Shown here: piece after piece, positions 36,989-60,130 of the stretch
Numbering within the stretch: the stretch's first letter is position 1
Layout of the letters: each line of letters opens with the position of its first letter
Assembly: GCA_963817915.1 (NCBI GenBank)
Contig: CAWFQL010000018.1
Location: forward strand, 50,965 to 114,964
Direction: 5' to 3'
DNA from: an uncultured candidate division Zixibacteria bacterium
Lineage (GTDB): Bacteria > Zixibacteria > MSB-5A5 > UBA10806
Length of the DNA stretch: 64,000 bases
The notes under the pieces: model-generated
The model's database searches: none
Seen by the model: only the letters and a program-made list of their open reading frames with translations
What the model was told of the DNA's origin: nothing
Program-made: the position numbers and the translations under genes

Positions 36989-39900
36989 ATGTGGCGTCAA
37001 ATGCTATTATTCGTATCTGTCCTTTCTTTAGTTGCGGTTGTAACGCCATCAATAGCTGTTCAGCCTCAGGTTTGCTTCACGGAAAATCAAGGCCAATACG
37101 GAGTGAATACGGTCTTTAAGGCTCATTCCGGGCCGGCGAATCTTTATTTTTGTCGCGATGAAGTTGTATATCTCTTAGGAAGGTATAAAAATGAGCCGGA
37201 TAAATCGCAATCGTTTGCAAATATGCCTTTCAAGCATGCAATGCCAAAATCGGAGATTGAGACGATTTATTTCAGGACAAAATTCATCGATGCTAATCCC
37301 AACGTAGAAATTGTGGGCTTCGATAGACTATCCTACAAAAGCAATTTTTTCAAGGGAAACGATCAATCGTTGTGGCATACTGATGTACCAAGCTACGGTT
37401 CAATTGTTTATCGAAATATATATCAGGGTATTGACCTTAAATATACAGGCCGAGGATCTTCCGCGAAATACCAATTTGAATTAATGCCTGGAGCGGATCC
37501 TGGCCTAATAAAGATTGCCTATGACGGTATTGATCTATTAAGCCTTAATTCGAATGGCGATCTCCAGATTCAAACATCCTTCGGGACTGTGATGGAGAAG
37601 GCTCCTGTTATTTATCAGGAAATTAATGGTACGAGAAACTCAATAGCGGGAAGATTCGATCTCATCGCTCCCGGCATTTTAGGTTTCAAAATTGATGGTA
37701 TATATGATAGCTCGTTTCCACTGGTAATAGACCCGGAACTAATCTACAGCACCTATTTCGGAGGCTCGGGTACAGATTTAATTGCAGATATTTACGTGGA
37801 TCCCCAGGGATATATTTATATTGTCGGCTGTACTGATTCGCCTAATTTCCCTACCGAAAATCCATATGATCCTTCCAATAATGGTTCTTACGATGCCATA
37901 TTATCTAAATTCTGGCCTGGCGGAGATTCACTCGTATTTAGCACATATCTTGGGAGTTCCAGTCTGGATTACGCTACAGGCGTAGAAGTTGATCCTTCTG
38001 GCAATTGCTATGTCGCGGGCAGAACCGACGCGGATGATTTCCCCACTATTAATGCTTTTGATCCCACATTCAACGGAAATTATGACACCTTTGTCACTAA
38101 ACTAAGCCCCGAAGGGAATTCGCTTATCTACAGTACATTTATAGGCGGAGGTTCGGGAGATGGCGGCGATTTATGTTTTGGATTAGATATTGATAATTCG
38201 GGGCAGGCATATATCACCGGAATAACCGCGTCCGGCGACTTCCCTACCCTAAACGCCTATCAGTCGATTTTGCGTGGCGGAGATGATGTCTTTGTTACCG
38301 TATTATCGGCAAGCGGAACCTCGCTAATTTTCAGCACATTTCTCGGTGGGACAATGTGGGGTGATTATGGGTCTGACATAGTCGTAGATTCTGAAGGAAA
38401 TTCATATATCACGGGACAAACTGAATCGCAAGATTTCCCCACTTTAAATGCGTTTGATTCTACAGCCGGGGATTGTAAAGCAATTGTCGCGAAATTTTCG
38501 CCTTCTGGAAACCTGGAATTCTGCACTTTTCTTGGAGGTGAAATTGCCCGCCAATCAGGCGAAGCAATCGCCTTGGATAATGAGGGCAATATTTATGTTA
38601 CGGGCAGCACGACGTCCAGGGATTTTCCTACAGTAAATGCCTATAGCGGACATCTCAGAGCCGGTGATATTTTCGTAAGCAAATTTTCTCCATCCGGCCA
38701 AACACTTCTTTACAGCACATTATTGGGCGGTTGGTTCAATGAGGAAGCCCTTGGCATAGCAGTTGACGCCGATCAGAATGCTTATGTTGTGGGAATTACA
38801 AATTCAAATGATTTTCCCATGGTCAACGCAATTGACGATCAATGTGAAGGCGAGGAAGCCGTGATTGTTAAATTGCCTACTACCAGAGGATGCGTCACCT
38901 TCAGCACATATCTTGGCGGATCGGGAGCAGATGGTGCCTCGACCGTGGCCCTTGACGCGCAGGGCAATGTTTGGCTGGCTGGAAATACCAATTCTCATAA
39001 TTTCCCCATGATTAATCCTTTCGATCCTTCCTATAATGACAGTTATGGGGAGAGTGACATATTTATTTCAGCATATCAAATAGGCGATGTCATCGCCAAT
39101 CCCACAGGTTCGGTAGGTGGAATAGTTACCGATATTCAATCAAATCCATTAGAGGGAATTAGAATATTAGCCTCTGGTACCGGAAGGGAGGATACTACTG
39201 ATGCGCAAGGAGCTTATAAGATAGAAAATTTATGTTCCGGCTATGCTGATATCCTGACAGCTGATTCACTTTATAATGATACTTTGATACTGGGAATTCC
39301 CGTTAATTCTAACGATGTCACCGTTCTCGATATTACCTTACTATCCAGCGGCACTGTATCTGGATTTGTAACCGATACTCTGATGCATCCACTTGAAAAT
39401 GCCGTAGTAACGCTGTGGGGTAATCCGCCGATATTTGATACCACTGATGTCTCGGGGGCATTTTCATTTAACGACCTTAGACCGGGGACATATGATAGCT
39501 TAAATTGCCGACGAGATCATTATTTTAGTACTCTCATTGAAAATATTTCAGTACAACCGGGCGACCAAACGCTTATTCCCATAACGATGATCGGCAAACC
39601 TGAAAATGTCAGGATTTGGTTTGGAAACCCCTACGGCAGACCAATCAATGTTATGCCGGGCGATCAAGTTCCTATAGATGTTTATATTCAAACAGCAGAC
39701 ACGATTTATATCGGATATTACCTCGCAATTCAATTGGGCGCTATGACCAATTATATAACCGGATTTACAAGCGGAACGTATGGAGCTGTATATTATCCAT
39801 TCTCAGGATGGGAGGATGCCATTTTTCGCGAACCATTATATCCTCCCGATATACCTGATGGTTGGATCAGCCAGACGGTAGGCGGTTTTCAGTCTTACAA

Positions 39901-40465
39901 TGGACCTCTTGGGCCGCCAATGCATTTTCCAGAACCCACAAAAATTGCGACATTTGTAGCAACAACTATTAATGATATGTCCCTTATTGGCGATACTGTC
40001 GAATGCCTGGGATCAGGTTTTTATCCTGGCGTTGGCTGGGGTACGATTGCATTTGATTCTTTGGGCATAAATGAATGTTTTGTTTATGATTATTATAGCC
40101 CGATCTGTTTTACTACTACGCATGATTATCGCCCCGGCGACGCCAATGGCAATGGAGTATTTAACGGGTTGGATGTGGTGTATGCCGTGAATTTCCTTAA
40201 AGGTACTGGTTCGCCGCCTCCATCGGGTATGGATTGCCCACCCCATAGCTTCCTGTATGCGGCTGCAGATGCTAATGGCAGTTGCAGTTTTAACGGTCTC
40301 GATGTGACATTTATGGTGCGATATTTTAAAGGAGAAATTCCAAGTGCGCTTTATTGCTCCGATTGCCCGCCCTCAGGGCTGAATCCGCCGGGCTCGGCTC
40401 TACTACCCCCTCAAGGGTCATCTTCAAAAACGACTATAAATGATAACGTTGGATCCGAAAAATAG
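36989..40465 (+). CDS. Secreted SBBP (seven-bladed beta-propeller) repeat protein with carboxypeptidase-regulatory-like domains and a dockerin-like C-terminus
   Basis: FTENQGQ N-domain; repeated YSTY.GG..D...I.VD..GN.YI.G.T.S.DFP; two G.VTD....PLE.A modules; GDANGNGVFNGLDV. Confidence 0.88.
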   Translation: MWRQMLLFVSVLSLVAVVTPSIAVQPQVCFTENQGQYGVNTVFKAHSGPANLYFCRDEVVYLLGRYKNEPDKSQSFANMPFKHAMPKSEIETIYFRTKFIDANPNVEIVGFDRLSYKSNFFKGNDQSLWHTDVPSYGSIVYRNIYQGIDLKYTGRGSSAKYQFELMPGADPGLIKIAYDGIDLLSLNSNGDLQIQTSFGTVMEKAPVIYQEINGTRNSIAGRFDLIAPGILGFKIDGIYDSSFPLVIDPELIYSTYFGGSGTDLIADIYVDPQGYIYIVGCTDSPNFPTENPYDPSNNGSYDAILSKFWPGGDSLVFSTYLGSSSLDYATGVEVDPSGNCYVAGRTDADDFPTINAFDPTFNGNYDTFVTKLSPEGNSLIYSTFIGGGSGDGGDLCFGLDIDNSGQAYITGITASGDFPTLNAYQSILRGGDDVFVTVLSASGTSLIFSTFLGGTMWGDYGSDIVVDSEGNSYITGQTESQDFPTLNAFDSTAGDCKAIVAKFSPSGNLEFCTFLGGEIARQSGEAIALDNEGNIYVTGSTTSRDFPTVNAYSGHLRAGDIFVSKFSPSGQTLLYSTLLGGWFNEEALGIAVDADQNAYVVGITNSNDFPMVNAIDDQCEGEEAVIVKLPTTRGCVTFSTYLGGSGADGASTVALDAQGNVWLAGNTNSHNFPMINPFDPSYNDSYGESDIFISAYQIGDVIANPTGSVGGIVTDIQSNPLEGIRILASGTGREDTTDAQGAYKIENLCSGYADILTADSLYNDTLILGIPVNSNDVTVLDITLLSSGTVSGFVTDTLMHPLENAVVTLWGNPPIFDTTDVSGAFSFNDLRPGTYDSLNCRRDHYFSTLIENISVQPGDQTLIPITMIGKPENVRIWFGNPYGRPINVMPGDQVPIDVYIQTADTIYIGYYLAIQLGAMTNYITGFTSGTYGAVYYPFSGWEDAIFREPLYPPDIPDGWISQTVGGFQSYNGPLGPPMHFPEPTKIATFVATTINDMSLIGDTVECLGSGFYPGVGWGTIAFDSLGINECFVYDYYSPICFTTTHDYRPGDANGNGVFNGLDVVYAVNFLKGTGSPPPSGMDCPPHSFLYAAADANGSCSFNGLDVTFMVRYFKGEIPSALYCSDCPPSGLNPPGSALLPPQGSSSKTTINDNVGSEK

Positions 40466-40618: not shown

Positions 40619-41218
40619 CTATCTTGGCAAGAAAAACGAAAATCCCATCGAGAAATTGATAATGGTGCCGTTTGCGGAGCTTGAACCTGGCCCGAGATAC
40701 TGTCTCGAATCATCTGAATCAAAGCTTTGAGCATTGTAGTTCAATTCAACAAATGTACAAATCTCCTCCGAAAGCATGATGGCAGCTCCTCCACCAAGAG
40801 TTATCGTTGTCATCGATCCATACTCCAGGCTATTGTATGTCAATGCCATGCGCATATAAGGATATAGTGTGCCTTTTCTGATTGAACTATAGGGATGCAA
40901 GTCGAAATAGTAACGCAATTCAGGTCCTACCCCCCATGTATTGGAAACGTATCCCTCCTCAGAATATCTGCTGATTTCGAGTCGCCCGCCAATTGCCAGT
41001 CCCTTGGCTACAAATATTGCCATCATGGGGTCAATTGTCAAAATTGAGTACGGGTGCCCATTGGTAGGCACGTAAAGATCTCCACTATATCTGGAATAAG
41101 ATAGCCCGCCTTCGAGCAGCGTATTTTTCCTATCAATTGGGGAAGACTGGGCAAGTAACGGAATCACGGCGGCAAGAATTATTATTACTGTTAACGCCAA
41201 GAAGGATGATTTTTTCAT
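40619..41218 (-). CDS. Small outer-membrane beta-barrel protein
   Basis: Signal peptide; amphipathic strands (GVGPELRYYF, LYPY, LGGGAA); terminal GFSFF strand. Confidence 0.8.
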   Translation of the reverse strand: MKKSSFLALTVIIILAAVIPLLAQSSPIDRKNTLLEGGLSYSRYSGDLYVPTNGHPYSILTIDPMMAIFVAKGLAIGGRLEISRYSEEGYVSNTWGVGPELRYYFDLHPYSSIRKGTLYPYMRMALTYNSLEYGSMTTITLGGGAAIMLSEEICTFVELNYNAQSFDSDDSRQYLGPGSSSANGTIINFSMGFSFFLPR

Positions 41219-41457
41219 TTTTTGCTCCAGGAATTTGGGTTAGGTTTTATCCATCAATTTTGCCGAATTAAATTGTTAATCTGAATCCATTTTAGCATTA
41301 TGAGATAACAGCCGTCAATCCGAAAATGAATTCCCCCGCGGGAATAGGAACTACACTTTGATCTCATGTGTTGTTATGCCGCAGGGAAAAGTTATCTTCT
41401 CGCGGCATCTTGAATCTAATCCTGACGCTCGCTGCGATACTCGTTCCTTATTATCCC

Positions 41458-41487
41458 TTGACGAAGTAGCGTCAATTGGATTATTTT
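41458..41487 (+). promoter_or_regulatory. Probable host promoter of the tRNA-Leu gene
   Basis: TTGACG-18 nt-TATTTT ending 13 nt before the tRNA 5' end. Confidence 0.55.
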
Positions 41488-41500
41488 GATAAGCTGTTGA

Positions 41501-41540
41501 GCGAAAGTGGCGGAACTGGCAGACGCGCTGGACTTAGGAT
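41501..41540 (+). tRNA. 5' half of tRNA-Leu(TAG), interrupted just after the anticodon loop (att site)
   Basis: GCGAAAG TG GCGGAACTGGCAGACGC G CTGGA CTTAGGA T; the expected CCAG, variable arm and T arm are replaced by unrelated sequence. Confidence 0.88.
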
Positions 41541-42232
41541 GCGACCGGGGGCTTTTTCTAACCCACCAAAACACATCGTATTATATTGTGATACATGGAA
41601 TTATACGAATTTTCGTCTTGGCTCATTTTGGCCTATTTTGGGTCATTTTGGCTCAGCTATAGACACTTTTTGGACACCAAAAGCAAATCAAACCTGCCAA
41701 ATTGGCATAGCGTTTTCAATAGGATTTACATCGTGATCTTATTCATATCATTTTTTAAAAAAATGGTAAGAATCAAACCAGTGCAGCAATTCTATCCTCA
41801 ACTAGGACTTTGCTTAAGAAGTCTAGTTTTAGAAAGACACGAGGCAAGATTAAGACTTGGATCTTGCTTGAATACAGGTGCATGCCATAAAAAGCTGCGA
41901 AGAATTAATAGGGCCGGCTTTCGGGTCATGAGCCGGATGTCACTCCCTAATACGGGACAATACTAAATAATAAAAAATAACAAGGGCCAAGACTTACTCC
42001 TTGTCGTCTTTTCCGCTATTGTCCTGTTTTATCCCGTATGACAGAGTATTATTTTAGAAAACAAAAACCTGAACTTCCTTTTTGCATTGGCCAAAATGTA
42101 AAAAATATCTTCTCTACCAGAATGGATAGCCCGAAGCTGGCATCGATGTTTCCTGTTGATTTGAATGCAAAAGTGTGATTAATTCAATCTTAATTGTCAT
42201 TTCTTGGTAATCTGCTTAAGCGCGGAGATTAT

Positions 42233-44815
42233 TTGAAAGATCATAATGGAAATTCCAGTTCGGAGCTGACCGAAGGCACAAAGGTCGGTAAATATCTGCT
42301 TGTTAATAAAATAGGCTCTGGCGGCATGGGTGATGTATACCTTGCCGAGGATACTGATCTAAATCGCAAGGTTGCCCTCAAATTCCTTTCGTCATCTATT
42401 GCTTCTGATATTGATTGCAAGGCACGTTTTATACGGGAGGCCCAGGCGGCTGCCAAGCTCAATCATCCCAATATAGTTACTATATATGAAGTCAGTGAAT
42501 TTAAGGGACGACCGTTCTTCGCTATGGAATATGTCGAGGGAGACTCTCTTAGGGATATTAGCGAGAAGCAAGACCTAACCCAGGCTCAAGTCATTGATAT
42601 TGCTATTCAAATATGTGACGGTCTTCAAGAGGCCCACGCTGCCGGGATTATTCACCGCGATATTAAGCCTTCCAATATTCTCGTTGATCAAAATAACCGC
42701 TGCAAATTGCTTGACTTCGGCCTGGCGGTTGTCCGAGGATGCGATCCTTTGACTAAGGATAAATCGACTTTGGGGACCGTTAGCTATATGTCACCTGAAC
42801 AGATTTTGGGCAAGGAAATCGATAGCAGGGCAGACATTTTTTCATTTGGTATCGTTTTGTATGAATTACTTAGCGGAGACCTTCCGTTCAACGGTGAGCA
42901 TGACGCCGGCATGATGTATTCGATCGTAAATAGCGACCCTATTCCCTTACAGAATATTATGCAAGATGCTTCACCGGAACTTGATAGTCTAATCAACCGT
43001 TTGCTGCAGAAATCCCCAGATGATCGTTTTCAATCAATGGCAGACGTTGCTATCGAATTGAGAAGAATCAAAGGCGATACGTCGGCTCCCAGCCGGCTGT
43101 CAGCATCATCATCGACCAGCTCGCGAAGAAGTGTTATCCGAAAGAAAATTTTGGGAATAATTATTCCGCTAATTGTAATTGGTATAGCTGCGCTATCCTA
43201 TTTTATCTTTGCTTTCAACCCATCTAAATCCTCATTAAAACGAGTAGTTGTGGTACCATTCCAGAATCAGACAGGAGACGCTTCGCTTGATCCATTTGGA
43301 CGTATGATCGCAGACTGGATATCGCAAGGACTTATTCAAACTAGATTGACCGAAGTCGTTTCTCCCGAAATAACACTCGGACCTGATGTTAATGAAGACA
43401 TCCGTTCGATTGCCGGGAAATCAGGATCAAACGCTGTCGTAGCGGGTTCTTTTTATAGGATCGCAGACAAGATTCTGGTTCAGGCAAAAATTATGGATTC
43501 CAATAATAAGCTGCTTCAGGCAATTGAACCTATCGCGACTCCAGCCGAGAAAATGATGGATGCGGTTGAAGCAATCCGCAAAAGCGTGACTGGTGCATTT
43601 ACCTTTGAGTTCAGCGAAAGATCTAAAGATATCAAAGCGATCGAAATAAAACCTCCATCTTACGAAGCCTATCAACAGTACTTTAGCGGAATTGACATAT
43701 TTATTAAGAGCGCTGGCACCGAGGGGCTTGAGTTTTTCGACAGAGCCTATACCTTAGATACATTATTTGTTTCAGCCCTTTTGTACTCCTTTTCTGTCTA
43801 TCAAAACCTTGGACTGAGGACTAAAGCTGATTCTGTGATACAGTTTTTAAACGCACGCCGCAGCCATCTTAACTCATTTCAGCAATTGTTGCTGGACGAA
43901 GGAATTAATGTGTTGTCCGGGGATCACGTCAAGGCTCTTATTATCGCCCGAGAATTGGCCGAAATTTCTCCAACGGATCTTTTTATTTATGGGTGGGGGC
44001 GTCAAGCGTATTTCGCAAATCACCCTCGGGAAGCGATAAAGGCGTTTAAGAGAATTGATTTAGAATCATATTCTATGCACTGCTGGATTCCTTACTGGAA
44101 TTTCCTTACCGCATCGTATCACACTCTGGGTGACTATGAGAATGAAATTCAAGCTTCACAAATGTCCCGCAAACTGTATCCAAATGACATTTCCACATTG
44201 AGTGATGAGATGCGGGCTTTTGCCGCCATGGGGAAATTCGATGGCGTAAGAGAATGTTTGACGATTTATGCAACTCTATTGAAACAGGATAATGCCGATT
44301 TGGTGGAATTTATGCGAACCGCCGCTGAGGAATTACGAGCTCATGGATATGAGGATAGTTCAATGGCGATCTTTAATCAGGCAATCCTGTGTTTCGAGAG
44401 CTTGCCATCTGAGAATATGAAAACCCGGCGTCTAAGTTATGGAACTCTGCTTTATGAAGCTCGCCGATGGAAGGAAGCGAGAGGCGTTTTCGAAGAGCTC
44501 GAAAGTCGGCTTATGGATAGCCTGGACCTCCGCGGAGCCTGGCTTGGGACTTCAGCGGCCAGGCTTGGGGATGGCGAAAAGGCGCGCAAAGTCTCAAGGT
44601 GGCTCGACAATATCAAACGACCATTTCTTTATGGAGCCCCAACCTATAATCAGGCATGCATTGCAGCCATACTGGGTGAAAGAGAAAAGGCTGTTGAGCT
44701 TCTCAATGAAAGCTTATTACAGGGGTATAGCTATTTTGATGTACACATTGATATGGATTTTGAATCCTTGAGAGATTACCCGCCATTCAAGAATCTGATG
44801 TCACCAAAGGACTAA
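42233..44815 (+). CDS. Membrane Ser/Thr (Hanks-type) protein kinase with extracytoplasmic TolB-N/CsgG-like and TPR sensor region, paralog 1
   Basis: GSGGMGDV, VALK, HRDIKPSN, DFG, YMSPEQ; one TM; VVVPFQNQTGD; TPR helices; TTG start with GGAG RBS matching paralog 2. Confidence 0.92.
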   Translation: MKDHNGNSSSELTEGTKVGKYLLVNKIGSGGMGDVYLAEDTDLNRKVALKFLSSSIASDIDCKARFIREAQAAAKLNHPNIVTIYEVSEFKGRPFFAMEYVEGDSLRDISEKQDLTQAQVIDIAIQICDGLQEAHAAGIIHRDIKPSNILVDQNNRCKLLDFGLAVVRGCDPLTKDKSTLGTVSYMSPEQILGKEIDSRADIFSFGIVLYELLSGDLPFNGEHDAGMMYSIVNSDPIPLQNIMQDASPELDSLINRLLQKSPDDRFQSMADVAIELRRIKGDTSAPSRLSASSSTSSRRSVIRKKILGIIIPLIVIGIAALSYFIFAFNPSKSSLKRVVVVPFQNQTGDASLDPFGRMIADWISQGLIQTRLTEVVSPEITLGPDVNEDIRSIAGKSGSNAVVAGSFYRIADKILVQAKIMDSNNKLLQAIEPIATPAEKMMDAVEAIRKSVTGAFTFEFSERSKDIKAIEIKPPSYEAYQQYFSGIDIFIKSAGTEGLEFFDRAYTLDTLFVSALLYSFSVYQNLGLRTKADSVIQFLNARRSHLNSFQQLLLDEGINVLSGDHVKALIIARELAEISPTDLFIYGWGRQAYFANHPREAIKAFKRIDLESYSMHCWIPYWNFLTASYHTLGDYENEIQASQMSRKLYPNDISTLSDEMRAFAAMGKFDGVRECLTIYATLLKQDNADLVEFMRTAAEELRAHGYEDSSMAIFNQAILCFESLPSENMKTRRLSYGTLLYEARRWKEARGVFEELESRLMDSLDLRGAWLGTSAARLGDGEKARKVSRWLDNIKRPFLYGAPTYNQACIAAILGEREKAVELLNESLLQGYSYFDVHIDMDFESLRDYPPFKNLMSPKD

Positions 44816-44838
44816 ATACTCCCGATACCCGATATGAC

Positions 44839-46434
44839 CTAGTCAGACACAATAATCTTGCGATCCACAACGATCTTATACCTTTTTACTTTGTTTGCCA
44901 GACCTTTGGGTGTTAGGCCCAATACTCGCGATGTTCGAAAGACGTTTCCCTTATTTTCTGTCAGCGCTTTTTTAATTATGGCTTTTTCAACATTCGCGAC
45001 GGCGTCTTTTATCGTACCGTTAAATTCACTCATGCCTGTTGCTTCAGCTGCAAGAGCGGCGAGACCGGGCGATAGATCACTGCAATCAATGATTCCGCTT
45101 GAGCTACAAGCGACGGCCGCCCGCTCGATTTCACTCTCTAACTCCCGGACATTGCCAGGCCAGTTGGATTTCACCAGAACGTCAAGTGCTCCAGGCGTTA
45201 TGGACAATTTTCCCCGGCAAAGCTTTATCCCGATCTTTCTCATGAAATGATTCACCAATAAAGGGATGTCTTCCCGGCGTTCACGAAGCGGTGGGAGATC
45301 GATCATGAATGTATTGAGACGGTAAAACAAATCATCACGGAATCTCTTAGATGCCATTTCCTCCTGAAGATTCTTATTAGTGGCCGAGATAACGCGAACA
45401 TTCACCCTTTCGGTTTTAGTTGATCCAAGAGGTCGTATCTCCCCGTTCTGAATTACTCTTAAAATCGCTGCTTGAATTGACAATGGGGCATCTCCTATTT
45501 CATCTAAGAATATCGAGCCCCCATCGGCTTCTTTGAATAAACCTATCTTGTTTCTAATCGCTCCGGTGAACGAGCCTTTCATGTGTCCGAAAAGCTCCGA
45601 TTCAAGTAAGGTCTCCGTCTTAAATCCACAATTGATGACGACAAACGGCTTATTCCTTCGCTCGCTGTTAAAATGAATCGCTTTAGCGACAAGGTCCTTG
45701 CCGGTTCCTGTTTCCCCGGTGATCATTATAGGAGAGTCGATGACGCTATATTGGGACGCCAGCATCAGGGCTTTTTTCATGACAGCTGATTTACCGATGA
45801 TATTTTCAAATGCCAGAATATCGCTTATCTCGCTTTTCAATCGGAGATTTTCCTGTTTCAGCTTCTGCTTCGAGATATTCAGCAGTTCATTTGCTCCAGT
45901 CAAATCTTCCAGAAGCTTGACATTAGCCAAAACCTGCGCCGATATAGGTATTAGGATTTCCATGAGATAGCAGTGTTTTTCTTCGAATGGCTGCTTGTTA
46001 CTGCTTCTTATCAATGTCATCAGTCCAATTGTCTTACCGCGCACAATCATCGGATAACAAATAATCGATTTATACTTCCCTTTGCTGGAATCAATTTCCT
46101 TGAATCGGCTGTCGTTGTCAAGGTCGTCGATTTTGAGCATTTGCTTGTTATTGAGTACCCACCCCAAAAGCTGAGTGCTGATTGTGTAGGGAATGTCCTC
46201 GCGATTCTGACTATGGACTCGGATAATGGTCGATAGATCCTCTGCTGTCGAATCAGGTATAAAGCTTATAACCCCTTGGTCTGAGTCTGTCCTGGCTACG
46301 AGCTCCGCAACCATGGTGTTCATGATAAGGTTTGATTCCCTAATCCCACAAATCTTGGCCATTATATTGACGGCGAACGCGAAATCGTCAGGAATTCTAC
46401 TGGAACTTGGATTTTCCGAATTATGATTATTCAC
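44839..46434 (-). CDS. Sigma54-dependent enhancer-binding protein (GAF-AAA+-Fis HTH)
   Basis: N-terminal GAF; GETGTGKD; ESELFGHMKGSFTGA; FLDEIG; WPGNVRELE; C-terminal HTH. Confidence 0.93.
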   Translation of the reverse strand: MNNHNSENPSSSRIPDDFAFAVNIMAKICGIRESNLIMNTMVAELVARTDSDQGVISFIPDSTAEDLSTIIRVHSQNREDIPYTISTQLLGWVLNNKQMLKIDDLDNDSRFKEIDSSKGKYKSIICYPMIVRGKTIGLMTLIRSSNKQPFEEKHCYLMEILIPISAQVLANVKLLEDLTGANELLNISKQKLKQENLRLKSEISDILAFENIIGKSAVMKKALMLASQYSVIDSPIMITGETGTGKDLVAKAIHFNSERRNKPFVVINCGFKTETLLESELFGHMKGSFTGAIRNKIGLFKEADGGSIFLDEIGDAPLSIQAAILRVIQNGEIRPLGSTKTERVNVRVISATNKNLQEEMASKRFRDDLFYRLNTFMIDLPPLRERREDIPLLVNHFMRKIGIKLCRGKLSITPGALDVLVKSNWPGNVRELESEIERAAVACSSSGIIDCSDLSPGLAALAAEATGMSEFNGTIKDAVANVEKAIIKKALTENKGNVFRTSRVLGLTPKGLANKVKRYKIVVDRKIIVSD

Positions 46435-46733
46435 TGCTTCTTACCCTTAATAAGCCTCACAAATTAAAATTGGGAGTTAGATATGCCGCTGTCAAGGGAA
46501 ACGTTCAGCAACTGTTGTCGGGCCAGTAGCCCCCAATAAGGGTAGTTTGTTCTTTCCCGATATACTTTGTTCCATAATTGGGCGTTTTTTTCGCTGCGGA
46601 CACGATCGAAGGTTTCAATCAATTGTATGAGATTGACGGAGCGACGAAATAAAGATAAATTATAAAAGCCGGAAGCAGTACGATATGTCCAATTGCAAAT
46701 ATTAAAAACCGGCAGCCTTAATGCGGAGATTAT

Positions 46734-49313
46734 TTGAAAGATCATAATGGAAAATCCTGTTCGGAGCTGACCGAAGGCACAAAGGTCGGTAAATATCTGC
46801 TTGTTAATAAAATAGGCTCTGGCGGCATGGGTGATGTATACCTTGCCGAGGATACTGATCTAAATCGTAAGGTTGCCCTCAAATTCCTGTCGTCATCTCT
46901 AGCCTCTGATATTGATTGCAAGGCACGCTTTATACGTGAAGCTCAGGCGGCGGCCAAGCTTAATCATCCTAACATTATCACAATCCATGAGGTCAGTGAA
47001 TTCCGAGGGCGGCCGTTCTTCGCTATGGAGTATGTCGAGGGAGACTCCCTTAGGGACATTAGCAAGAAGCAAGACCTAACCCAGGCGCAAGTCATTGATA
47101 TTGCTATTCAAATATGTGACGGTCTTCAGGAAGCTCACGCGGCCGGGATTATTCACCGCGATATTAAGCCTTCCAATATTCTCGTAGATCAAAATAATCG
47201 CTGCAAATTACTTGATTTCGGCCTAGCGCTTGTACGAGGCTGCGATCCTTTGACCAAGGATAAATCGACCTTGGGGACTGTCAGCTATATGTCACCGGAA
47301 CAAATCCTGTGCAAGGAAATCGATAACAGGGCAGACATTTTTTCATTTGGTATTGTTTTGTATGAATTACTTAGCGGAGACCTTCCGTTCAAAGGTGAGC
47401 ATGACGCCGGCATGATGTACTCGATCGTAAATGGCGACCCTATTCCCTTACAGAATATTATGCAGGATGTTCCGTCGGAGCTTGATGGTCTAATCAACCG
47501 TTTGCTGCAGAAATCACCAGATGATCGTTTTCAGTCAATGGCTGATGTGGCACATGAGTTGAGAAGGATTAGAGGCGATACGTCGGCTTCTGATTTGTCC
47601 TTAAAATTGAGACCAACAAAACCTCAAATGCGGTTTATCAGAAGTAGAGTCTTTCGCATTGCTGCTGCGGTGGTTATCATTGGCATAGCGCTGTCGGCAT
47701 ATTTCTTCAGCCCACTTAGTTCATCGAAATCTACACTAAAACGCGTGGTTGTCGCGCCATTTGAAAATAAAACCGGAGACTCTTCCCTTGATCCGTTTGG
47801 ACGGATGATCGCTGATTGGACTACTCAGAGTCTTCTGCAGACTGGGCTGGCCGAAGTCATTCCACCGGAGAACTTGACTGAGTTGGAAAATCCTCAAAGC
47901 ATCCGTTTGATTGCCCATGAAACAAATGCAAACGCAATAGTTGTAGGTTCTTATTATAAAATTGGTCGGACAATCCAGATTCAGGCGAAAGTAATGGATG
48001 CCAATGAAAAACTCTTGCTCGCGATTAACCCCGTGGCAGTCCCGGCCGAGAAAATGATGGATGCGCTTGATTCCGTGACCTATGAAGTGAGGGGAGCCCT
48101 TGCATTTGTATTCGATGAACGTTTAGAAGAACTTAAGATATACTTTCCAAAGCCTCCAATGTATGAAGCTTATCGCTCATATATCATTGGTCTTGATCTG
48201 TTCACGAATAACTCAGGGTCCCAGGGAATTGAATACTTCAACCGAGCTTACTCTTTGGATACAACTTTTTATTTCCCACTCATGTATACTTTTTATGTTT
48301 ATTATAATGTAGGTCAGTTTGCACGGGCTGATTCCGTCCTGCGATTTATAGACTTAAGGCGTGATCGTCTTAGCTCCCTTCAACAATTGATTCTAGACTT
48401 ATATATCAATACGATGTCCGGCGATCTTGATAAGGCTTTAATCGCGGCCCGTGAGGTCGCCAGGATTTCGCCGAATCCCGGCCCCCTGTATGATTTGGGT
48501 CGGACAGCATTCATTGCAAATCGTCCACGGGAGGCAATTGATGTCTTCAAGAGAATCGATACGGAAGATTGCTCGATGAGAGGCTGGGTTGCATATTGGC
48601 ATTACTTCGCTCTTTCTTATCATATGCTTGGGGACTTTAGGAAGGAGCTTGAAATAGTCAAAAAGGCTCGCAAACTTTATCCCAATAATATTTTGGCCCT
48701 GAGTGATGAGATGCTGGCTGTTGCCGCCCTGGGAAAGATTGACCGAGTTAGAAGCTGTTTGCAGGAGTATGCCGCGCTTTCGAAACAGGAAAATACCGAT
48801 CAGGGAAGCTTTATGATTAAAGCTGCTTCTGAATTGAGGGCTCACGGGTATGAAGATAGCGCCATGGTGATTCTTAACCTGGCAATTCGTTGGTATGAAA
48901 GCCGTACACCCGATGAGCTGAAGCCCTTGAGAAACTCTTATGCCGCATCATTATATGGGGCGCGTCGGTGGGATCAGTCAAAAATAATATTTGAGGAGCT
49001 TGCAAAGGAATCTCCGGACGTCTGGGAATATCGGGGATGGATCGGTCTGACCGCAGCGAGATTAGGCGATCGCGAAAAAGCATTGGAAATTTCCGAGTGG
49101 CTGGGCACCATTAAGCAGCCATATCTTTTTGGGGGTAATACTTATTATCGCTCATGCATAGCGGCAATCTTAGGGGATAAAGAAGAAGTCGTTACGCTTC
49201 TCAGAGAGAGCCTGTCGCAGGGGTACAGCTATTTCCAAACACATTTTGATATGGATTTTGAATCTTTGAGGGATTACCCCCCATTCATTGAATTGATGAA
49301 ACCAAAAGGCTGA
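46734..49313 (+). CDS. Membrane Ser/Thr protein kinase with TolB-N/CsgG-like and TPR sensor region, paralog 2
   Basis: Same motifs as 42233-44815; kinase domain nearly identical, sensor region diverged. Confidence 0.92.
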   Translation: MKDHNGKSCSELTEGTKVGKYLLVNKIGSGGMGDVYLAEDTDLNRKVALKFLSSSLASDIDCKARFIREAQAAAKLNHPNIITIHEVSEFRGRPFFAMEYVEGDSLRDISKKQDLTQAQVIDIAIQICDGLQEAHAAGIIHRDIKPSNILVDQNNRCKLLDFGLALVRGCDPLTKDKSTLGTVSYMSPEQILCKEIDNRADIFSFGIVLYELLSGDLPFKGEHDAGMMYSIVNGDPIPLQNIMQDVPSELDGLINRLLQKSPDDRFQSMADVAHELRRIRGDTSASDLSLKLRPTKPQMRFIRSRVFRIAAAVVIIGIALSAYFFSPLSSSKSTLKRVVVAPFENKTGDSSLDPFGRMIADWTTQSLLQTGLAEVIPPENLTELENPQSIRLIAHETNANAIVVGSYYKIGRTIQIQAKVMDANEKLLLAINPVAVPAEKMMDALDSVTYEVRGALAFVFDERLEELKIYFPKPPMYEAYRSYIIGLDLFTNNSGSQGIEYFNRAYSLDTTFYFPLMYTFYVYYNVGQFARADSVLRFIDLRRDRLSSLQQLILDLYINTMSGDLDKALIAAREVARISPNPGPLYDLGRTAFIANRPREAIDVFKRIDTEDCSMRGWVAYWHYFALSYHMLGDFRKELEIVKKARKLYPNNILALSDEMLAVAALGKIDRVRSCLQEYAALSKQENTDQGSFMIKAASELRAHGYEDSAMVILNLAIRWYESRTPDELKPLRNSYAASLYGARRWDQSKIIFEELAKESPDVWEYRGWIGLTAARLGDREKALEISEWLGTIKQPYLFGGNTYYRSCIAAILGDKEEVVTLLRESLSQGYSYFQTHFDMDFESLRDYPPFIELMKPKG

Positions 49314-49617
49314 TTATCCCGATCACAAGATTTATATAGCGAGATTATCCCTGTTAAATTTTATTTTTATCGTGCTGATGAGTGTCATGAGTCCGATAAT
49401 TTCACTACCAAAGATCATCCCGTAGCCAAGAATTGATTTAAATTTACTTTCGAGAGAGTTAAATTCCCGAAATTACGTCTCTCGATCAAGATCATCAATT
49501 TTGAGCTTGCTCTTGTTATTCAAGACCCAGCCAAGAATTTAAGCTCTTATTATATAGGAGATATCTTCACTATTATGTCTGTGGACACGAATAATAGCCG
49601 ATAAATCTCCGGACCAA

Positions 49618-49825
49618 GGTAGTAAGTTCGCGCTTAAGGTACTTAGTACCGTAATCAAATTTTGTCCAATGCCACATTCAAATAGCTAACACTAAGAGTA
49701 TGAATATGTTGTGAGCATATGGGCCAATGCCAAAAAGCGGTATGAATTATGTATACTATTTAAGTAGCGCGACTTTTTCCGATCGAAGCATTCTGCGAAT
49801 TAAATTGGATGGCAACTAAATAGAA
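49618..49825 (+). promoter_or_regulatory. Candidate enhancer sites and imperfect sigma54 promoter for the secreted-protein array
   Basis: GGTAGTAAGTTCG (49618) and palindrome GGTACTTAGTACC (49638) 20 bp apart; TGGCAACTAAATAGAA (49810-49825) has the -24 GG but GA instead of GC at -12. Confidence 0.4.
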
Positions 49826-49854
49826 TGCAGAACCAGGAGTTCAAAAGGACAATT

Positions 49855-50145
49855 ATGAAAAGCCACAATAAAACTTCGGAAAAGAAGCAAAATTCATTTT
49901 CAGGCCTTAACGATAATAAGATTGAGCTCAACATCACCAAGCCCGGTGAAATCAGACTTAGTATCTTCGATTCAATGGGTAAATCCATCTACCAATGGAC
50001 AGGATATGCTTTCAAATCCGGGGCAACCTCGATTAGATGGAACTACAAGGACAACCAAGGAAATAACCTGCCACCCGGGGCCTATTCTTACACAATCCAA
50101 TCTCCCGACGGAAATTCAAACGGGAAAATTACACTTCATAAATAA
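49855..50145 (+). CDS. Stand-alone FlgD-Ig / sorting-domain-like small protein
   Basis: IRLSIFDSMGKSI...WNYKDNQGNNLPPGAYSY pattern; RBS aagga; no signal peptide. Confidence 0.7.
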   Translation: MKSHNKTSEKKQNSFSGLNDNKIELNITKPGEIRLSIFDSMGKSIYQWTGYAFKSGATSIRWNYKDNQGNNLPPGAYSYTIQSPDGNSNGKITLHK

Positions 50146-50198
50146 GACAAAATTATGGATGCGAAAAAAAATATAAAGATTGAAAAGAGGATAAAAAA

Positions 50199-52370
50199 AT
50201 GAATGGATCGTTAAAGGTTTACTTGGTCGCTGCGGCATTCGCAGTAGTGCTATTTAACTTAACGGTTGCAAATCCGGCTTCGGCCCAGAATGTTGAATTT
50301 GTTTCCTCGACGCTCTGGTCTGCGTACAACGATGTTAAAGTTATTAATAATTACGCCTTCTGCGCCTGCGAATATGGATTAAAGATATTGGATATATCAA
50401 ATCCTGCCATGCCGTCACATGCAGGGCAGTTTTCTTATCGGGGATGCAATGCGATTGACGTTCTTGGCGATTATGCCTACATTGCTGCAGGTGATTCAAG
50501 TCTTCAAATAATAAACATCTCCAATCCGGCCGACCCGATATTGACGGGGAATTTCAATACTTCCGGGCACTCCAATGATGTTATTGTTTATGGAAATATT
50601 GCCTATGTGGTTAACGGTGAATCCGGACTACAAATCATCAGCGTTGCGAATCCGGCAAATCCAACATTGATTGGAAGCTACGATACACCAGGGGCGGCGT
50701 TAAATGTATTTTTGGAAAATAATTATACCTATATAGCCGATGGCAATTCCGGACTTCAAATAATCGACGTCGCCAATCCGTCCAGCCCGGTATTTGCCGG
50801 AAGTTGCAGCCTATCATTTTATTCTCAAGATGTTTATGTCACCGAGAATTACGCATATGTTGTCGGGAGTGGCAGAGGTGGGGCGCTCGGCATAATAGAC
50901 ATTTCCACTCCAGCAAATCCCATACTTAATGGAAGCTGCTATACTATTAGAGCTTTTGGCGTTATTGCATATGGTGGTTACGTTTACATATCTGGTGAAC
51001 AGCTTCTTGGCGGATATCCGTTTCCTAGGCATGTCGGTGGAGGCCTTGAAATATACGACGTCAATGACGCTTCTAATCCGCAACTATATGGCAGCTATTA
51101 TTATGATTCCCGGGGATCAACAAATCACGCATTTATTTCCGACAATTACGCCTATCTGACGGACAACGCATCTGGCTTCCGCGTCATGAACATTTCCGAT
51201 CCTGCCAATCCAACGCTGGCTGGAGGATATTATTGCCAGGCAGTTAACAACATCTACATCTCTGACAATTACGCTTACGTGGGAAGTGAATATTTGGGAT
51301 TTTTTATTGTTGATATAGCAGATCCCACCCGTCCGCTTTTGGCGGGAGTCTATGAGGATTCCATTCAGGACGTTTTTGTTTCGGGAAGCTATGCTTATAC
51401 GGTATACTCAGAAAGGTCTGCCGGTCATCTTGAAATTATTAATATAGACAATCCCAGCTCTCCGATATTTGCCGGAAGGTATGATATTCCCGGGCATTTC
51501 CTGGGATTCTACGTTTCTGGTAATTATGCTTATATAACTTGGGAAAATTCATCTTATTCAAAGCATTTTGAAATCATAAACATTGCAGACCCGGCCAATC
51601 CTTCTCTAGTAAGCAGATTCGGTCGAGGACTCGACGTTTTTATTTCGGGCCATTATGCCTATGTACCGGATGGTTTTAATGGCCTTAAGATAATCGATGT
51701 CAGCAATCCGATTAATCCTGTCTTAACAGGATGCTACGACACTACAGGATATGTCTACAGCGCATTCGTCTCCGGAGAATATGCTTATATCCGCGACCGA
51801 TCGTTTGGACTACAAATCATTAGCGTCGCCGATCGAGCTCATCCTACATTAATCGGAAGTTATAACATTCCCGATTCCGGTCAGCGCATCTATGTCTCTG
51901 GTAATTTCGTATATTTAACCAATACCGACGTCCAGATTATAGACGTTTCTGACCCGGCTAATCCTGCATTGGTAAGCAATATTGTTACGCCTGGCATCGC
52001 CAAAGATGTTGCTGTCTCTGGTGATTATATTTACGTGGCAGATTGGGGATCGCTTCAGGTTCTTCGATTCACACCAACAGGAATTGAAGATAGTGATATG
52101 CTACCCGGCCATTTCTCCCTCTCCCAAAACTACCCCAACCCCTTTAACGCCCAGACCACAATTCAATATTCTTTGCCGTCGCAATCGGAAATCTCTATCG
52201 ACATCTATGACATCCTCGGTCGCAAAGTAGAGAGGCTTGTAGAGGGAGTAAAGCCAGCAGGGAATCACCAGGCTACATGGGATGCTGGCGATCAGGCGTC
52301 GGGGATTTATTTCTATAGAATCAAGGCCGGCGATAAAGTCGAGACGAAAAAAATGATGATGATGAAGTAA
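50199..52370 (+). CDS. Secreted LVIVD-repeat protein with C-terminal YPNPFN sorting domain
   Basis: Signal peptide; more than 12 repeats of V.V.G.YAY.....[24 protein letters not shown]. Confidence 0.9.
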   Translation: MNGSLKVYLVAAAFAVVLFNLTVANPASAQNVEFVSSTLWSAYNDVKVINNYAFCACEYGLKILDISNPAMPSHAGQFSYRGCNAIDVLGDYAYIAAGDSSLQIINISNPADPILTGNFNTSGHSNDVIVYGNIAYVVNGESGLQIISVANPANPTLIGSYDTPGAALNVFLENNYTYIADGNSGLQIIDVANPSSPVFAGSCSLSFYSQDVYVTENYAYVVGSGRGGALGIIDISTPANPILNGSCYTIRAFGVIAYGGYVYISGEQLLGGYPFPRHVGGGLEIYDVNDASNPQLYGSYYYDSRGSTNHAFISDNYAYLTDNASGFRVMNISDPANPTLAGGYYCQAVNNIYISDNYAYVGSEYLGFFIVDIADPTRPLLAGVYEDSIQDVFVSGSYAYTVYSERSAGHLEIINIDNPSSPIFAGRYDIPGHFLGFYVSGNYAYITWENSSYSKHFEIINIADPANPSLVSRFGRGLDVFISGHYAYVPDGFNGLKIIDVSNPINPVLTGCYDTTGYVYSAFVSGEYAYIRDRSFGLQIISVADRAHPTLIGSYNIPDSGQRIYVSGNFVYLTNTDVQIIDVSDPANPALVSNIVTPGIAKDVAVSGDYIYVADWGSLQVLRFTPTGIEDSDMLPGHFSLSQNYPNPFNAQTTIQYSLPSQSEISIDIYDILGRKVERLVEGVKPAGNHQATWDAGDQASGIYFYRIKAGDKVETKKMMMMK

Positions 52371-52420
52371 GGCGATATTGATAGATAGTGATTGAAATAT
52401 TATTTCCCTGGAGGTTTCAA

Positions 52421-54382
52421 ATGCCAAGATGCTACTGTTTAGTGATTGTGTTAGTACTGCTCTGACTCGAGGCGCCGCTGTATGGCGGCAATTATGGATC
52501 GGGCGAAAAGCAAAAACTACTGCTCGCAGGTGAAAGCGTTGCCGGTCAAAAAATTACTTCTGAAAATACCGACCCGGATAACCCGATCCTTCTCAGCGGC
52601 GATTGTTCCGATTATATCGATCTATCCGGGCAATCCCTGCCCATCTTGGCAGTTGGCACAACTGTAGGAGCCACTAATAACTATGGGCCATTCCCTATCA
52701 CAGCCTCCTTCCTGGCACGGTTTGCGGTGGTATCCAGGCGCATGTGGAGGACCGGATAAGACCTATAAATGGACGGCGCCTGCCGATGGGTTCTACACGA
52801 TCTCACTCCTTGGAAGCTCTTATGATACCGGCTTGCTGCTATACAACTTCACTTGCCCGAGCCGAACCCTTTTATCCTGAAGATTTTATTGCTGGAAACG
52901 ATGACGTCTGGGGTATGCAATCTGAATTGTTTTGCCAGGAGTTTTCTGCCGGGCAGGAGATTCTGATTGTCGTTGATGGGTATGACAATAGCTATGGCAA
53001 TTATCAATTACGCATAAAGAATGCACCATCGCCGCGCGATCCCGATTCATTTATTACCTCGATCATGCAAACAGAGCATATCCCCGGGTTGTCAGCCTGT
53101 GCCATATCTGACGGTGAGGTAATTTGGTCTGGAAACTACGGACATGCGAATATCGCTCAAGATATCGAACCTACAGATTCCACCATCTATGTATTATGTT
53201 CGATTTCGAAAACCTTTGTCGCCGTGGCATTAATGCAGCTCTGGGAAGATGGTTTGTTTGGATTGGATGATGACATCAGCCAATATCTTCCTTGGGAAGT
53301 ACACAATCCATATTATCCCTCTTCTCCTATCACCTTCCGGATGCTGATGACTCATACTTCTGGGATTATTGATAATTGGAGTATGCTTAATCAGCTGTTA
53401 CACTTGGGGTGGCGATTCTCCTATTCCGCTGGGGGAATTCCTGATGAATTATCTAACTCCTGAGGGATCCTATTATTCTGGGGCCAACTTCGGCAATTAT
53501 TTGCCCGGCACGGTTTACAATTATGGCAATGTGGCAACTGCACTGGCGGCATACTTAGTCGAGAAGATCAATCCCGATTCTCTGTCGTTTGAAGATTACT
53601 GCCAACGTTCAATTTTCTCGCCGCTCGGCATGAATAACAGCTCCTGGTTCCTGGGCAATTTGGACCTGGATGATATCGCCGTCCCGTACTATTGGAGTGG
53701 CGGCAATTATAATTCAATTCCGCAACGCGGCCAGCCCTGGTATCCATGCGGTTCACTCAAGACGAGCACCAATCAACTGGCCCACTACTTGATCGCTATC
53801 ATGCAGCATGGTCAGTTTGAAGGCGCTAGAATCCTGGACAGTACTACAGTAGAAATGATCACTGCTATTCAACTTCCCGATGTCGAACCCAATACGGGAT
53901 TATTCTGGGTCACATATAGACCCGGTAATAGAGAAGCTTGGGGGCATAACGGAGAATGGAGCGGTTACAGAACCCAAATGTGGTATAGCCCGGCGGAAAA
54001 TACGGGCGTCATTGTCCTGACCAATGGCATGCCTAACTTGGGTCACTGGTATATCACGCAGGGGCTTTTTGAATATATCTCGTACCGTACAGAGGTCTCG
54101 GAATCATCATCGGCTCCAAATCAAATCACCCTCTCCCAAAACTACCCCAATCCCTTCAATGCCCAGACCACGATAAAATACTCGTTGCCATCCCCATCCG
54201 AAGTCTCAATCGATATTTTCGATATTCTCGGCCGCAAAGTTGAAAGACTTATAGAGGGAATGAAACCCGCTGGCTACAATCAGGCAGTATGGGATGCCAG
54301 CGATCAGGCATCGGGGATGTATTTCTACCGAATCAAGGCCGGCGACAAGGTCGAGACGAAAAAGATGATGCTGATGAAATAA
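52421..54382 (+). pseudogene. Secreted class C beta-lactamase-family serine hydrolase with N-terminal beta-sandwich and C-terminal sorting domain; disrupted as sequenced
   Basis: RBS ggagg-ATG 52421; in-frame TGA at 52463; +1 shifts near 52695, 52860, 53399; SxxK (CSISK), YxN (YGN), HNG motifs. The breaks may be assembly errors. Confidence 0.75.
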
Positions 54383-54460
54383 GATTTAATCTGTCCGGGC
54401 AGGCGCCCCGACAGCACTCGAAATATATATTATGATAACCCGAAGCAATTGGAGCAAAAG

Positions 54461-55736: not shown

Positions 55737-55993
55737 TTGTTTATAAAGATTCCTTCTTGACAGATATTAAAAAAGTAATATCTTTATACTACATTGATTT
55801 GCAGGCTTCCCCAGGCTGCAGATATCGAAAATCTAATATCAATCACAAACGGCTCTAGAATGAAGATTGTCTATGAAAAGAGCCTTAGTCATTTGTCGAA
55901 TACAACAAGGATATTTATGCCTATTTTTCAAGGCAGCATAGTCATTCGTGTGCGCAAACAAGAGAATATTACTCGGAATAATTGGAGGAAGAG

Positions 55994-57268: not shown

Positions 57269-57302
57269 TTATTTTTACTAACAAGCAACTTTGGAGGAAA
57301 AT

Positions 57303-59756: not shown

Positions 59757-60130
59757 GACAGCAGACCAACAGTCGAATTATGAAGCGCGGCGTTCGGCCA
59801 TTGTTTTCTTAGAATGACTTACTACAGTGAATTCATTTTCTGAAAAAGCTGTTGTCTGTCAAGCTTTTCTGGGTTTGAGACCCGAAAGTCAGATTGACCC
59901 GTTAATTCTAATCTTTTCTTATAATCGTCACAATTATCATATTTGAAGATATTGAAGTTGAAAGAATGATGCCGGGATATGAGAAGCATATGTTATGGTT
60001 GAAAGAGAATGAGTCGCCGATGACATTGTAAAACAAATATTATTTGGCCCCGACCTGCGCCTGGAAGTAATGGTTACGTTAGAAAGAACTTGCTTATTGA
60101 TTTGGCGTCTCTTAATTTAAAATATGTTAC

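Follow-up and report, generated by a model that had tools for sequence, protein, structure and literature searches.

Two receptor kinases flanking a sigma-54 activator

The window analysed here is a 64,000-nt stretch of DNA from an uncultured candidate division Zixibacteria bacterium (assembly GCA_963817915.1, contig CAWFQL010000018.1, positions 50,965 to 114,964). Within it lie a gene for a membrane Hanks-type Ser/Thr kinase, K1 (42233-44815, plus strand), a gene for a sigma-54 activator, ACT (44839-46434, minus strand; 531 amino acids, aa), and a paralogue of the kinase gene, K2 (46734-49313, plus strand; 859 aa). K1 and ACT converge with a gap of 23 nt, and ACT and K2 diverge across 299 nt. 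Pfam and NCBIfam matches bear out a preliminary description of the locus, in which two membrane Hanks kinases with TPR-type outer domains flank an activator with GAF, AAA+ and helix-turn-helix (HTH) domains. To this can be added that ACT lies on the opposite strand, that K2 is followed by a GAF pseudogene, and that three genes of the neighbouring secreted-protein array are broken. The kinases and the activator are best explained as a functional pair, a view supported by gene linkage in related genomes and by a predicted kinase-GAF complex.

Genes were called as the longest open reading frames (ORFs). That of K1 spans 42194-44815 (873 aa), and K1 residue numbers count from 42194. DNA homology between K1 and K2 begins at 42222 and 46723, respectively, directly followed by GGAG and then by TTG at 42233 and 46734. 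This TTG is the likely start codon of both genes, and is the start that the preliminary description gave for K1. Both proteins begin with a Pkinase domain (Pfam E-values 2e-56 for K1 and 6e-55 for K2; PF00069 scores 191.7 and 186.9 bits, cut-off 31.7). A single hydrophobic stretch follows, at about residues 317-340 of K1 as read from the sequence, and then a C-terminal part of about 530 aa with TPR and TPR_END_plus matches, where FlgO/TolB-N-like matches are weak. The K1 residues K63, H154-R-D156, N161, D174-F-G176 and P201-E202 occupy alignment columns that, among 34 kinases, never vary or are conserved to at least 90%, and K2 is identical to K1 at its catalytic residues; by domain and motif, both are predicted Hanks-type Ser/Thr kinases. 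The genome holds eight Hanks kinase loci among about 2831 ORF-level genes, so that two of the eight flanking one activator is not a chance layout.

ACT has the domain order GAF (about residues 36-168), Sigma54_activat AAA+ (212-378; PF00158, 218 bits), AAA_lid_14 and HTH_8 (479-519). Its Walker A and B motifs read GETGTGK and DEIGD, and its loop reads G-S-F-T-G-A. Family members never differ at F289, T290, G291 or A292; at the second position of the loop the consensus has A, whereas ACT and the homologue at locus L042 have S. With these Walker motifs and a GAFTGA-type loop, ACT has the AAA+ features of a bacterial enhancer-binding protein and is a predicted member of that class. Its top NCBIfam match is NifA (E 2e-107), and it falls below the equivalog cut-offs for NifA (TIGR01817, 360.2 vs 528.85), NorR (333.1 vs 476) and FhlA (270.6 vs 830). 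As the preliminary description held, no receiver or FHA domain was detected: Response_reg (PF00072) gave no Pfam match in ACT at E-values up to 0.01, and FHA none in ACT or in the ten relatives' activators scanned. The same search found Response_reg in neighbouring activators at loci L042 and L043, so it is able to find a receiver. The genome has rpoN, as a single Sigma54_DBD locus (C12:214891-215364, 204.9 bits), and about 15 sigma-54 activator loci. In a FastTree reconstruction ACT groups with the L042 and L043 activators (support 98) within the activators of groups f1 and f2; L042 is its closest relative, at 63-66% identity.

K1 and K2 are 66% identical over 859 aa (BLASTP), or 94.1% in the kinase domain and 54.8% in the sensor. 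Across the catalytic part (42233-43100 vs 46734-47600), identity in 50-codon windows is 90-98%, and differences at four-fold degenerate sites run 0.04, 0.52, 0.21, 0.47 and 0.00; the corresponding ranges in the outer domain are 44-58% and 0.42-0.88. The mosaic of four-fold divergence suggests gene-conversion tracts in the catalytic domains together with strong purifying selection. A remnant of a second activator gene (49371-49676, minus strand), located by tblastn with ACT, begins 58 nt past the K2 stop codon. It corresponds to GAF residues 29-144 alone, contains two in-frame stops, and has lost the AAA+ and HTH regions by deletion. Its protein identity to ACT is 49% over 116 aa (E 3e-26), and its DNA matches the GAF coding region of ACT at 67%; a genome-wide search with the GAF region also recovered it (C18:100335-100577). 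This remnant points to an ancestral state of two tandem kinase-activator units, the second of which lost the AAA+ and HTH parts of its activator. The presence of two kinases around one activator is then a by-product of tandem duplication and no purpose-built arrangement of two kinases. With catalytic domains so nearly identical, K1 and K2 could still both act on ACT, the activator that survived.

Kinase-activator pairing and its predicted contact

A gene-neighbourhood survey, proposed in the preliminary description as a test, found activator homologues linked to kinases in related genomes. A related-locus search with whole ACT retrieved only AAA+-level relatives lacking the GAF domain. In searches with the GAF region, this GAF type (E 1e-30 or better) occurs in 53 of 285 genomes, representing 29 of 130 genera; searching at class and at phylum level covered the same 285 genomes. 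A non-exhaustive scan of one genome for each of 185,579 species, with a single peptide pattern, placed it mostly in records titled Zixibacteria, a few other titles being Ignavibacteria, Deferrimicrobium, Acidoferrum and 'uncultured bacterium'. The linkage loci are records titled Zixibacteria and are kin, so they do not count as independent events. From 54 loci fetched, 53 were scored and 39 were assessable, their contigs continuing for at least 2.7 kb past the 3′ end of the activator gene; in the 14 left out, the contig ends less than 1.7 kb past that point. In the 54th, L050, the kinase is convergent and the GAF domain of the activator is shortened.

A Hanks kinase gene adjoins the activator in 33 of the 39 assessable loci, which span groups f1, f2, f5, f9, f13, f14 and f18. 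The two genes are convergent in 31 pairs (separated by -30 to +61 nt in 30 of these and by 448 nt in one) and co-directional in two, L042 and L043. The genome under study carries a second convergent pair (C6:142992-145571, plus strand, and C6:145602-147182, minus strand), whose activator has 54% identity with ACT across 521 aa. Kinase and activator domains are also found fused. Two proteins of 1727 and 1755 aa (L052:5900-11167, L053:6933-12116) have the Pfam order Pkinase-AAA_16-TPR-GAF-Sigma54_activat, HTH_8 not being among their listed matches. They are the two scanned by Pfam from a set of 18 open frames, 1603-1760 aa long and 34-38% identical to ACT over, approximately, its residues 19-521. 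Such fusions are present in most genomes of the family and order to which the window belongs, and in this genome the fusion is divided between two ORFs (1068 and 669 aa) that overlap (C6:175006-180203). In this clade, a predicted kinase domain and a GAF-type sigma-54 activator thus also occur within one polypeptide. These giant fusions are cytoplasmic, and their AAA_16 part is STAND-like.

The complex of K1 residues 20-315 with ACT residues 1-210 was predicted from custom, unpaired alignments of 34 and 39 rows. It scored 0.64, and the best of three controls scored 0.01. The 0.64 mark is attained by 116 of 157 solved complexes and by 2 of 215 mismatched pairs, a calibration that is only roughly valid with custom alignments. 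The runs share at least 74% of contacts, and the partner has a predicted local distance difference test (pLDDT) value of at least 78. In the predicted interface, the P+1/alphaG surface of K1 (residues 201, 204-206, 234-246 and 273) faces GAF residues 59, 84, 87-95, 110-114 and 135. The model supports binding of K1 to the GAF domain of ACT. K1 and K2 share 14 of the 15 named interface residues. Paired kinases have an alphaG signature, G-E-Y-E-A-A-x-x-Y-A/S-I-V-N, at which K1 and K2 read GEHDAGMMYSIVN, and which C16, C17 and C12, the remaining three kinases of this genome in the alignment, lack. Among PDB sequence matches of the ACT GAF domain there is no Hanks kinase.

The outer domains of K1 and K2 have a different affinity. 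The K1 sensor is 55% identical to that of K2, 42% to that of the unpaired C16 kinase and at most 22% to all others; the K1 catalytic domain is up to 54.6% identical to those of paired kinases and 54.0% to that of C16. The unit in the window thus joins a catalytic surface of the paired type to a different sensor. Together, the linkage and the complex prediction favour the proposal of the preliminary description that the kinases control the GAF-type activator.

Output genes, promoters and the surrounding island

Clustering of neighbouring genes in the relatives revealed one further conserved gene, whose product, about 435 aa long, carries a lipoprotein signal (L-x-G-C). The gene occurs at 43 loci, in 41 of which it is divergent from the activator gene (e.g., L065:6445-7752, L056:6445-7749 and L049:3261-4571). 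In 30 of these 41 intergenic regions the lipoprotein gene is faced by a TGGCAC-N5-TTGCW site that matches at least nine of eleven positions and includes GG and GC. Upstream of the relatives' promoters lies a palindrome, GGATA-N5-TATCC, with 24 sites (at most one mismatch) in 16 kb and a presence in 22 of the 41 loci. This is an enrichment of about 27-fold over the genome under study, in which 3.33 Mb hold 184 sites. At L042, a sigma-54 promoter matching ten of eleven positions faces a different small lipoprotein gene. Divergent lipoprotein genes behind sigma-54 promoters suggest that the ACT family normally drives such a gene. The lipoprotein of about 435 aa matches no Pfam family at E 1e-5. 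Its structural model (pLDDT 86.9) drew no Foldseek match with an E-value of 0.001 or less; the best VIA-align Z is 7.2, to generic beta-sheets, and the best Atlas match, 0.75, is a lead only.

A corresponding output was sought in the window and its genome. The exact sequence TGGCAC-N5-TTGC is absent from the 64-kb window, and no GG-N10-GC site matching at least nine of eleven positions occurs on the whole contig (C18). A matrix built from 30 relatives' promoters (training minimum 14.2, median 22.0) scores at best 12.9 in the island described below, at 41701, which is not before the array. No GGATA-N5-TATCC site with up to one mismatch lies in any island intergenic region. The window contains five one-mismatch sites: three far upstream of the island, one at 41238 just outside it, and one at 50390 within an LVIVD gene. 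The enhancer-binding arrangement of a nearby -24/-12 promoter with upstream sites is therefore seen, at the level of predicted sites, in the relatives and not in the window. The ACT upstream region shows no meaningful homology to that of L042. A scan of 41200-52800 for sigma-70 promoters and terminators gave 26 and 15 sites, vs 23.6 and 11.6 in shuffled sequences, and is thus uninformative. K1 and K2 were also considered as sigma-54 targets, and the candidate sites at 46710 (7/11) and 42138 (8/11, with no GC at -12) are too weak.

The unit lies in an island bounded by two 182-nt direct repeats of family D11 (41501-41682 and 60232-60413, both plus strand), which are 95% identical and delimit 41501-60413. 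In each repeat, 40-41 nt from the start of tRNA-Leu(TAG) come first, and about 141 nt more complete the copy. The first 40 nt of the left copy are identical to the start of an intact tRNA-Leu(tag) gene (C17:3754-3837), and window positions 60171-60271 (the 61 nt before the right repeat plus its first 40) are 100% identical to C17:3694-3794. ARAGORN found no tRNA gene in the window. The intact tRNA-Leu gene is directly preceded by an integrase-like ORF (C17:2693-3748) and followed by trigger-factor/ClpP/ClpX-like ORFs, labels that come from reading the sequences. The arrangement fits tandem elements at the anticodon region of tRNA-Leu, the block of kinases, activator and cargo genes being an 18.7-kb element without an integrase; the end of C18 and the start of C17 are probably adjacent, forming a tandem island array. 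In this sense the unit can be called mobile, as had been proposed. The absence of histidine kinases and extracytoplasmic function (ECF) sigma factors from the island, also claimed, was upheld by Pfam searches of every ORF of at least 100 aa between 41.5 and 60.3 kb, which gave no match to HisKA/HATPase or to sigma-70 regions 2 and 4. Just outside the island, the gene at 36989-40465 encodes a secreted protein of 1158 aa with DUF7948, six SBBP beta-propeller repeats and CarboxypepD_reg; its C-terminus is weakly dockerin-like, in place of a type IX secretion system (T9SS) tail.

To the right of K2, an array of five T9SS-type cargo genes (50199-59756, plus strand) is recognisable by Por_Secre_tail matches and tail repeats. 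It comprises an LVIVD protein with a Por_Secre_tail (50199-52370), a beta-lactamase fold with a tail, split by a frameshift (52744-54382, tail in ORF 53369-54382), a GH130-like protein with a tail, likewise split (54449-55736, tail in ORF 54822-55736), a second LVIVD gene in split ORFs with several frameshifts and its tail out of frame (55982-57277), and an FG-GAP protein with a tail (57291-59756), all on the plus strand. The array has five tail copies (repeat families D1, D3 and D9), of which four are intact (40-48 bits, cut-off 27) and the fifth is out of frame. A PorU-type sortase, the only T9SS component searched for, is encoded in the genome (NF033707, 688 bits vs cut-off 420; C17:298359-301652), and with tails above the cut-off and this sortase the array products are predicted T9SS type A cargo. 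Ahead of them is a small ORF of 106 aa (49825-50145, plus strand) with a sorting-domain-like Ig fold, in which FlgD_ig (33.3 bits) and CHU_C (29.7 bits) exceed their cut-offs, and TIGR04183, at 19 bits, lies under its cut-off of 23. Of the six co-oriented sorting-domain genes initially described, six plus-strand genes do follow K2; the sorting-domain label is less secure for the 106-aa ORF, and three of the six are broken by frameshifts.

No long homopolymers occur at the breaks in the split genes, which are either true pseudogenes or the result of assembly indel errors. In the island the breaks lie at about 53.4, 54.8, 56.1-56.9 and 57.2 kb. Further frameshift-split sigma-54 activator genes lie elsewhere in the assembly (C11:144052-145432 and C9:225354-226287). 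Sorting-domain genes number 156 of 2831 in this genome (about 5.5%; at least 150 in 3.33 Mb), so that their adjacency to ACT is weak evidence of regulation. Two of them lie within 3 kb of the second kinase-activator pair, on the other strand (C6:139005-141730), showing how common such neighbours are. Sigma-54-like sites matching 9-10 of 11 positions are found directly upstream of sorting-domain genes at C7:40191, C11:110469, C12:462309, C12:644998 and C12:176339; these are five of the genome's 31 intergenic sites, compared with 156 of 2831 genes (hypergeometric p = 0.025). Control of the cargo array by ACT is unproven and appears unlikely.

A proposed Ser/Thr kinase route to sigma-54 activation

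The interpretation that accounts best for these data, and is probably correct, is that the paralogous receptor kinases K1 and K2 dock on ACT and control it, the unit being a derived, duplicated and island-borne copy of a module common in Zixibacteria. The kinase catalytic domain would dock by its alphaG/P+1 surface on the GAF domain, and phosphorylation of ACT by the kinases would most likely be what sets its ATPase and transcription activity; we infer both the phosphotransfer and the direction of its effect. A Ser/Thr kinase would thereby stand in place of an NtrC-type histidine kinase and receiver, giving a one-step Ser/Thr route by which a signal in the periplasm reaches a sigma-54 activator via its GAF domain. 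The common module has three parts: a convergent kinase gene, the activator gene, and a divergent lipoprotein gene (about 435 aa) behind a sigma-54 promoter with GGATA-N5-TATCC sites. The unit in the window was duplicated in tandem, with decay of the second activator, and carries an outer sensor unlike that of other paired kinases, within the 18.7-kb island.

Several observations weigh against this interpretation. Six of the 39 assessable loci (L049, L059, L061, L063, L065 and L081) have no kinase, so the activator can work without one, and the 33 pairs are related by descent and not independent. The nearest relatives of ACT, at L042 and L043, have another kinase type in another orientation. 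Convergent genes for kinase and activator are not co-transcribed. A quick tree of full-length kinases places K1 and K2 with the unpaired paralogue C16, outside the 33 paired kinases; this placement is attributable to the outer domain, and a kinase-domain tree (FastTree) is poorly resolved. The complex prediction expresses model confidence from unpaired alignments, and the modelled interface consists of generic GAF and kinase substrate surfaces. The GAF motifs at the interface (GWVL and D-x-RF) are themselves generic, so their conservation adds little. The ACT alignment offers no nameable phospho-acceptor, and the Ser/Thr residues that never vary, T69 among them, may have a structural role. On the output side, ACT has P509 in the LGLT-R-KGL recognition helix of its HTH, where 38 of 39 aligned family members have R, possibly changing or abolishing its DNA specificity; a tblastn search of this genome (E 1e-3) did not recover the gene for the lipoprotein of about 435 aa; and the searches for sigma-54 promoters and upstream sites found no target promoter for ACT here.

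The preliminary description went further and had the activator drive the cargo genes, i.e., a full circuit in which ACT, controlled by the kinases, transcribes the adjacent six-gene array from a sigma-54 promoter. The start of the array does occupy the usual target position of the family, divergent from the dead second activator, and at L045 a 10/11 sigma-54 promoter precedes a sorting-domain 5'-nucleotidase gene directly upstream of a paired kinase gene. The excess of sigma-54-like sites before sorting-domain genes points the same way, as does an argument for sigma-54 control of the cell exterior in the accessible text of PMC3162934. Yet every search of the island for a sigma-54 promoter or upstream site was negative, the usual target of the family is a lipoprotein gene that this genome lacks, the recognition helix of ACT is altered at P509, half of the array genes are frameshifted, and a sorting-domain gene within a few kb is to be expected anyway. 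This extension is accordingly improbable. Slightly less so, though still unlikely, is that the island copy is a decaying remnant, in which the K1, K2 and ACT frames are intact but have ceased to make up a functioning circuit with any output here. The stop-containing GAF fragment, the three frameshifted cargo genes, the P509 residue unique to ACT among 39 sequences, and the failure to find target gene, promoter or upstream site would all be expected of such a remnant. Set against this, K1, K2 and ACT are free of stops and have all motifs intact, and the kinase catalytic domains bear the marks of strong purifying selection and conversion-like tracts; the frameshifts may be assembly errors, given the split genes elsewhere in the assembly.

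Two further explanations concern the kinases themselves. One is that the kinase controls the activator as NifL does NifA, by binding it stoichiometrically or sequestering it at the membrane, with phosphotransfer not being the signal. The predicted model, which docks the GAF domain on the C-lobe with no peptide in the catalytic cleft, would suit such a mechanism, as would the lack of a prominent conserved acceptor residue at the interface. It is nonetheless a rather unlikely account, since the kinase catalytic residues are invariant or nearly so across 34 kinases, indicating that catalysis is under selection, and the fusion proteins retain a full kinase domain. The other is that kinases and activator are unrelated neighbours and the GAF domain senses a small molecule alone, as in NifA-, FhlA- and NorR-type activators, whose GAF domains bind small ligands; the six loci without a kinase could be read in this way. 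This is very improbable, with a kinase abutting the activator in 33 of 39 loci, from at least eight family-level groups, with about eight kinase genes per genome, with the two joined in fusion proteins, and with a predicted interface that passed its controls.

If control of ACT by docking kinases is correct, a membrane Ser/Thr receptor kinase acting on a GAF activator would be a new input route to sigma-54, and GAF domains would gain a role as kinase docking and acceptor modules. A more far-reaching version can be put forward tentatively, at somewhat less than even odds: that this is a hitherto undescribed one-step pathway of Zixibacteria in which a receptor Hanks kinase docks on and phosphorylates a GAF domain, the latter serving as a phospho-input in place of a receiver or FHA domain, with two kinases, diverged in their sensors and almost the same in their catalytic domains, feeding one activator, and with the circuit, its sensor type exchanged, borne on an integrative island at tRNA-Leu. 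In the full-text literature, taken outside subscription journals and supplements, no description of a Hanks kinase paired with a GAF-type sigma-54 activator was found, and none that joined Zixibacteria, sigma-54 and a kinase. Zixibacteria are uncultured, and the relatives supply all the parts of a small experimental system (the kinase and activator, the upstream sites and promoter, and the target gene) that could be rebuilt in E. coli. For the window itself, kinase-activator coupling and an island-borne, duplicated module are supported, and control of the secreted-protein array is not.

Known inputs to sigma-54 activators are receiver, PAS, GAF-with-ligand, V4R, PRD and FHA domains. ACT shares the GAF-AAA-HTH architecture of NifA, FhlA and NorR, and in NifL-NifA a separate, kinase-like sensor protein binds and controls such a GAF-containing activator. 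The partner of ACT, however, belongs to the Hanks kinases, has TPRs in its outer domain and is not a PAS/GHKL protein, and no nif, nor or hyc genes are nearby. As in NtrB-NtrC, a kinase is combined with a sigma-54 activator with a Fis-type HTH, and the relatives have upstream sites and a -24/-12 promoter; here there is neither a histidine kinase nor a receiver, and the chemistry would be Ser/Thr instead of His-Asp. Jelsbak et al. are said to have described, in 2005, FHA-domain enhancer-binding proteins of Myxococcus xanthus, in which Ser/Thr kinase signalling is likewise thought to feed sigma-54 activators. Those activators carry the phosphothreonine-binding FHA domain, whereas ACT and its 38 aligned relatives have a GAF domain and no FHA domain was found. 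In Vibrio, the transmembrane Hanks kinase PknT acts with a cognate ECF sigma factor, EcfP, whose gene lies nearby. The closest characterised analogue is PknS-EcfK of Xanthomonas citri, likewise with neighbouring genes, which is similarly a one-step system in which a membrane Ser/Thr receptor kinase acts on a factor that redirects RNA polymerase. According to the accessible text of PMC13147305, direct phosphorylation by PknS falls on the ECF sigma factor, in its sigma-2 and linker regions, and the output is a secretion system. The target in that system is an ECF sigma factor; here, on an island without one, the putative partner of the kinases is a sigma-54 AAA+ activator with a GAF domain.

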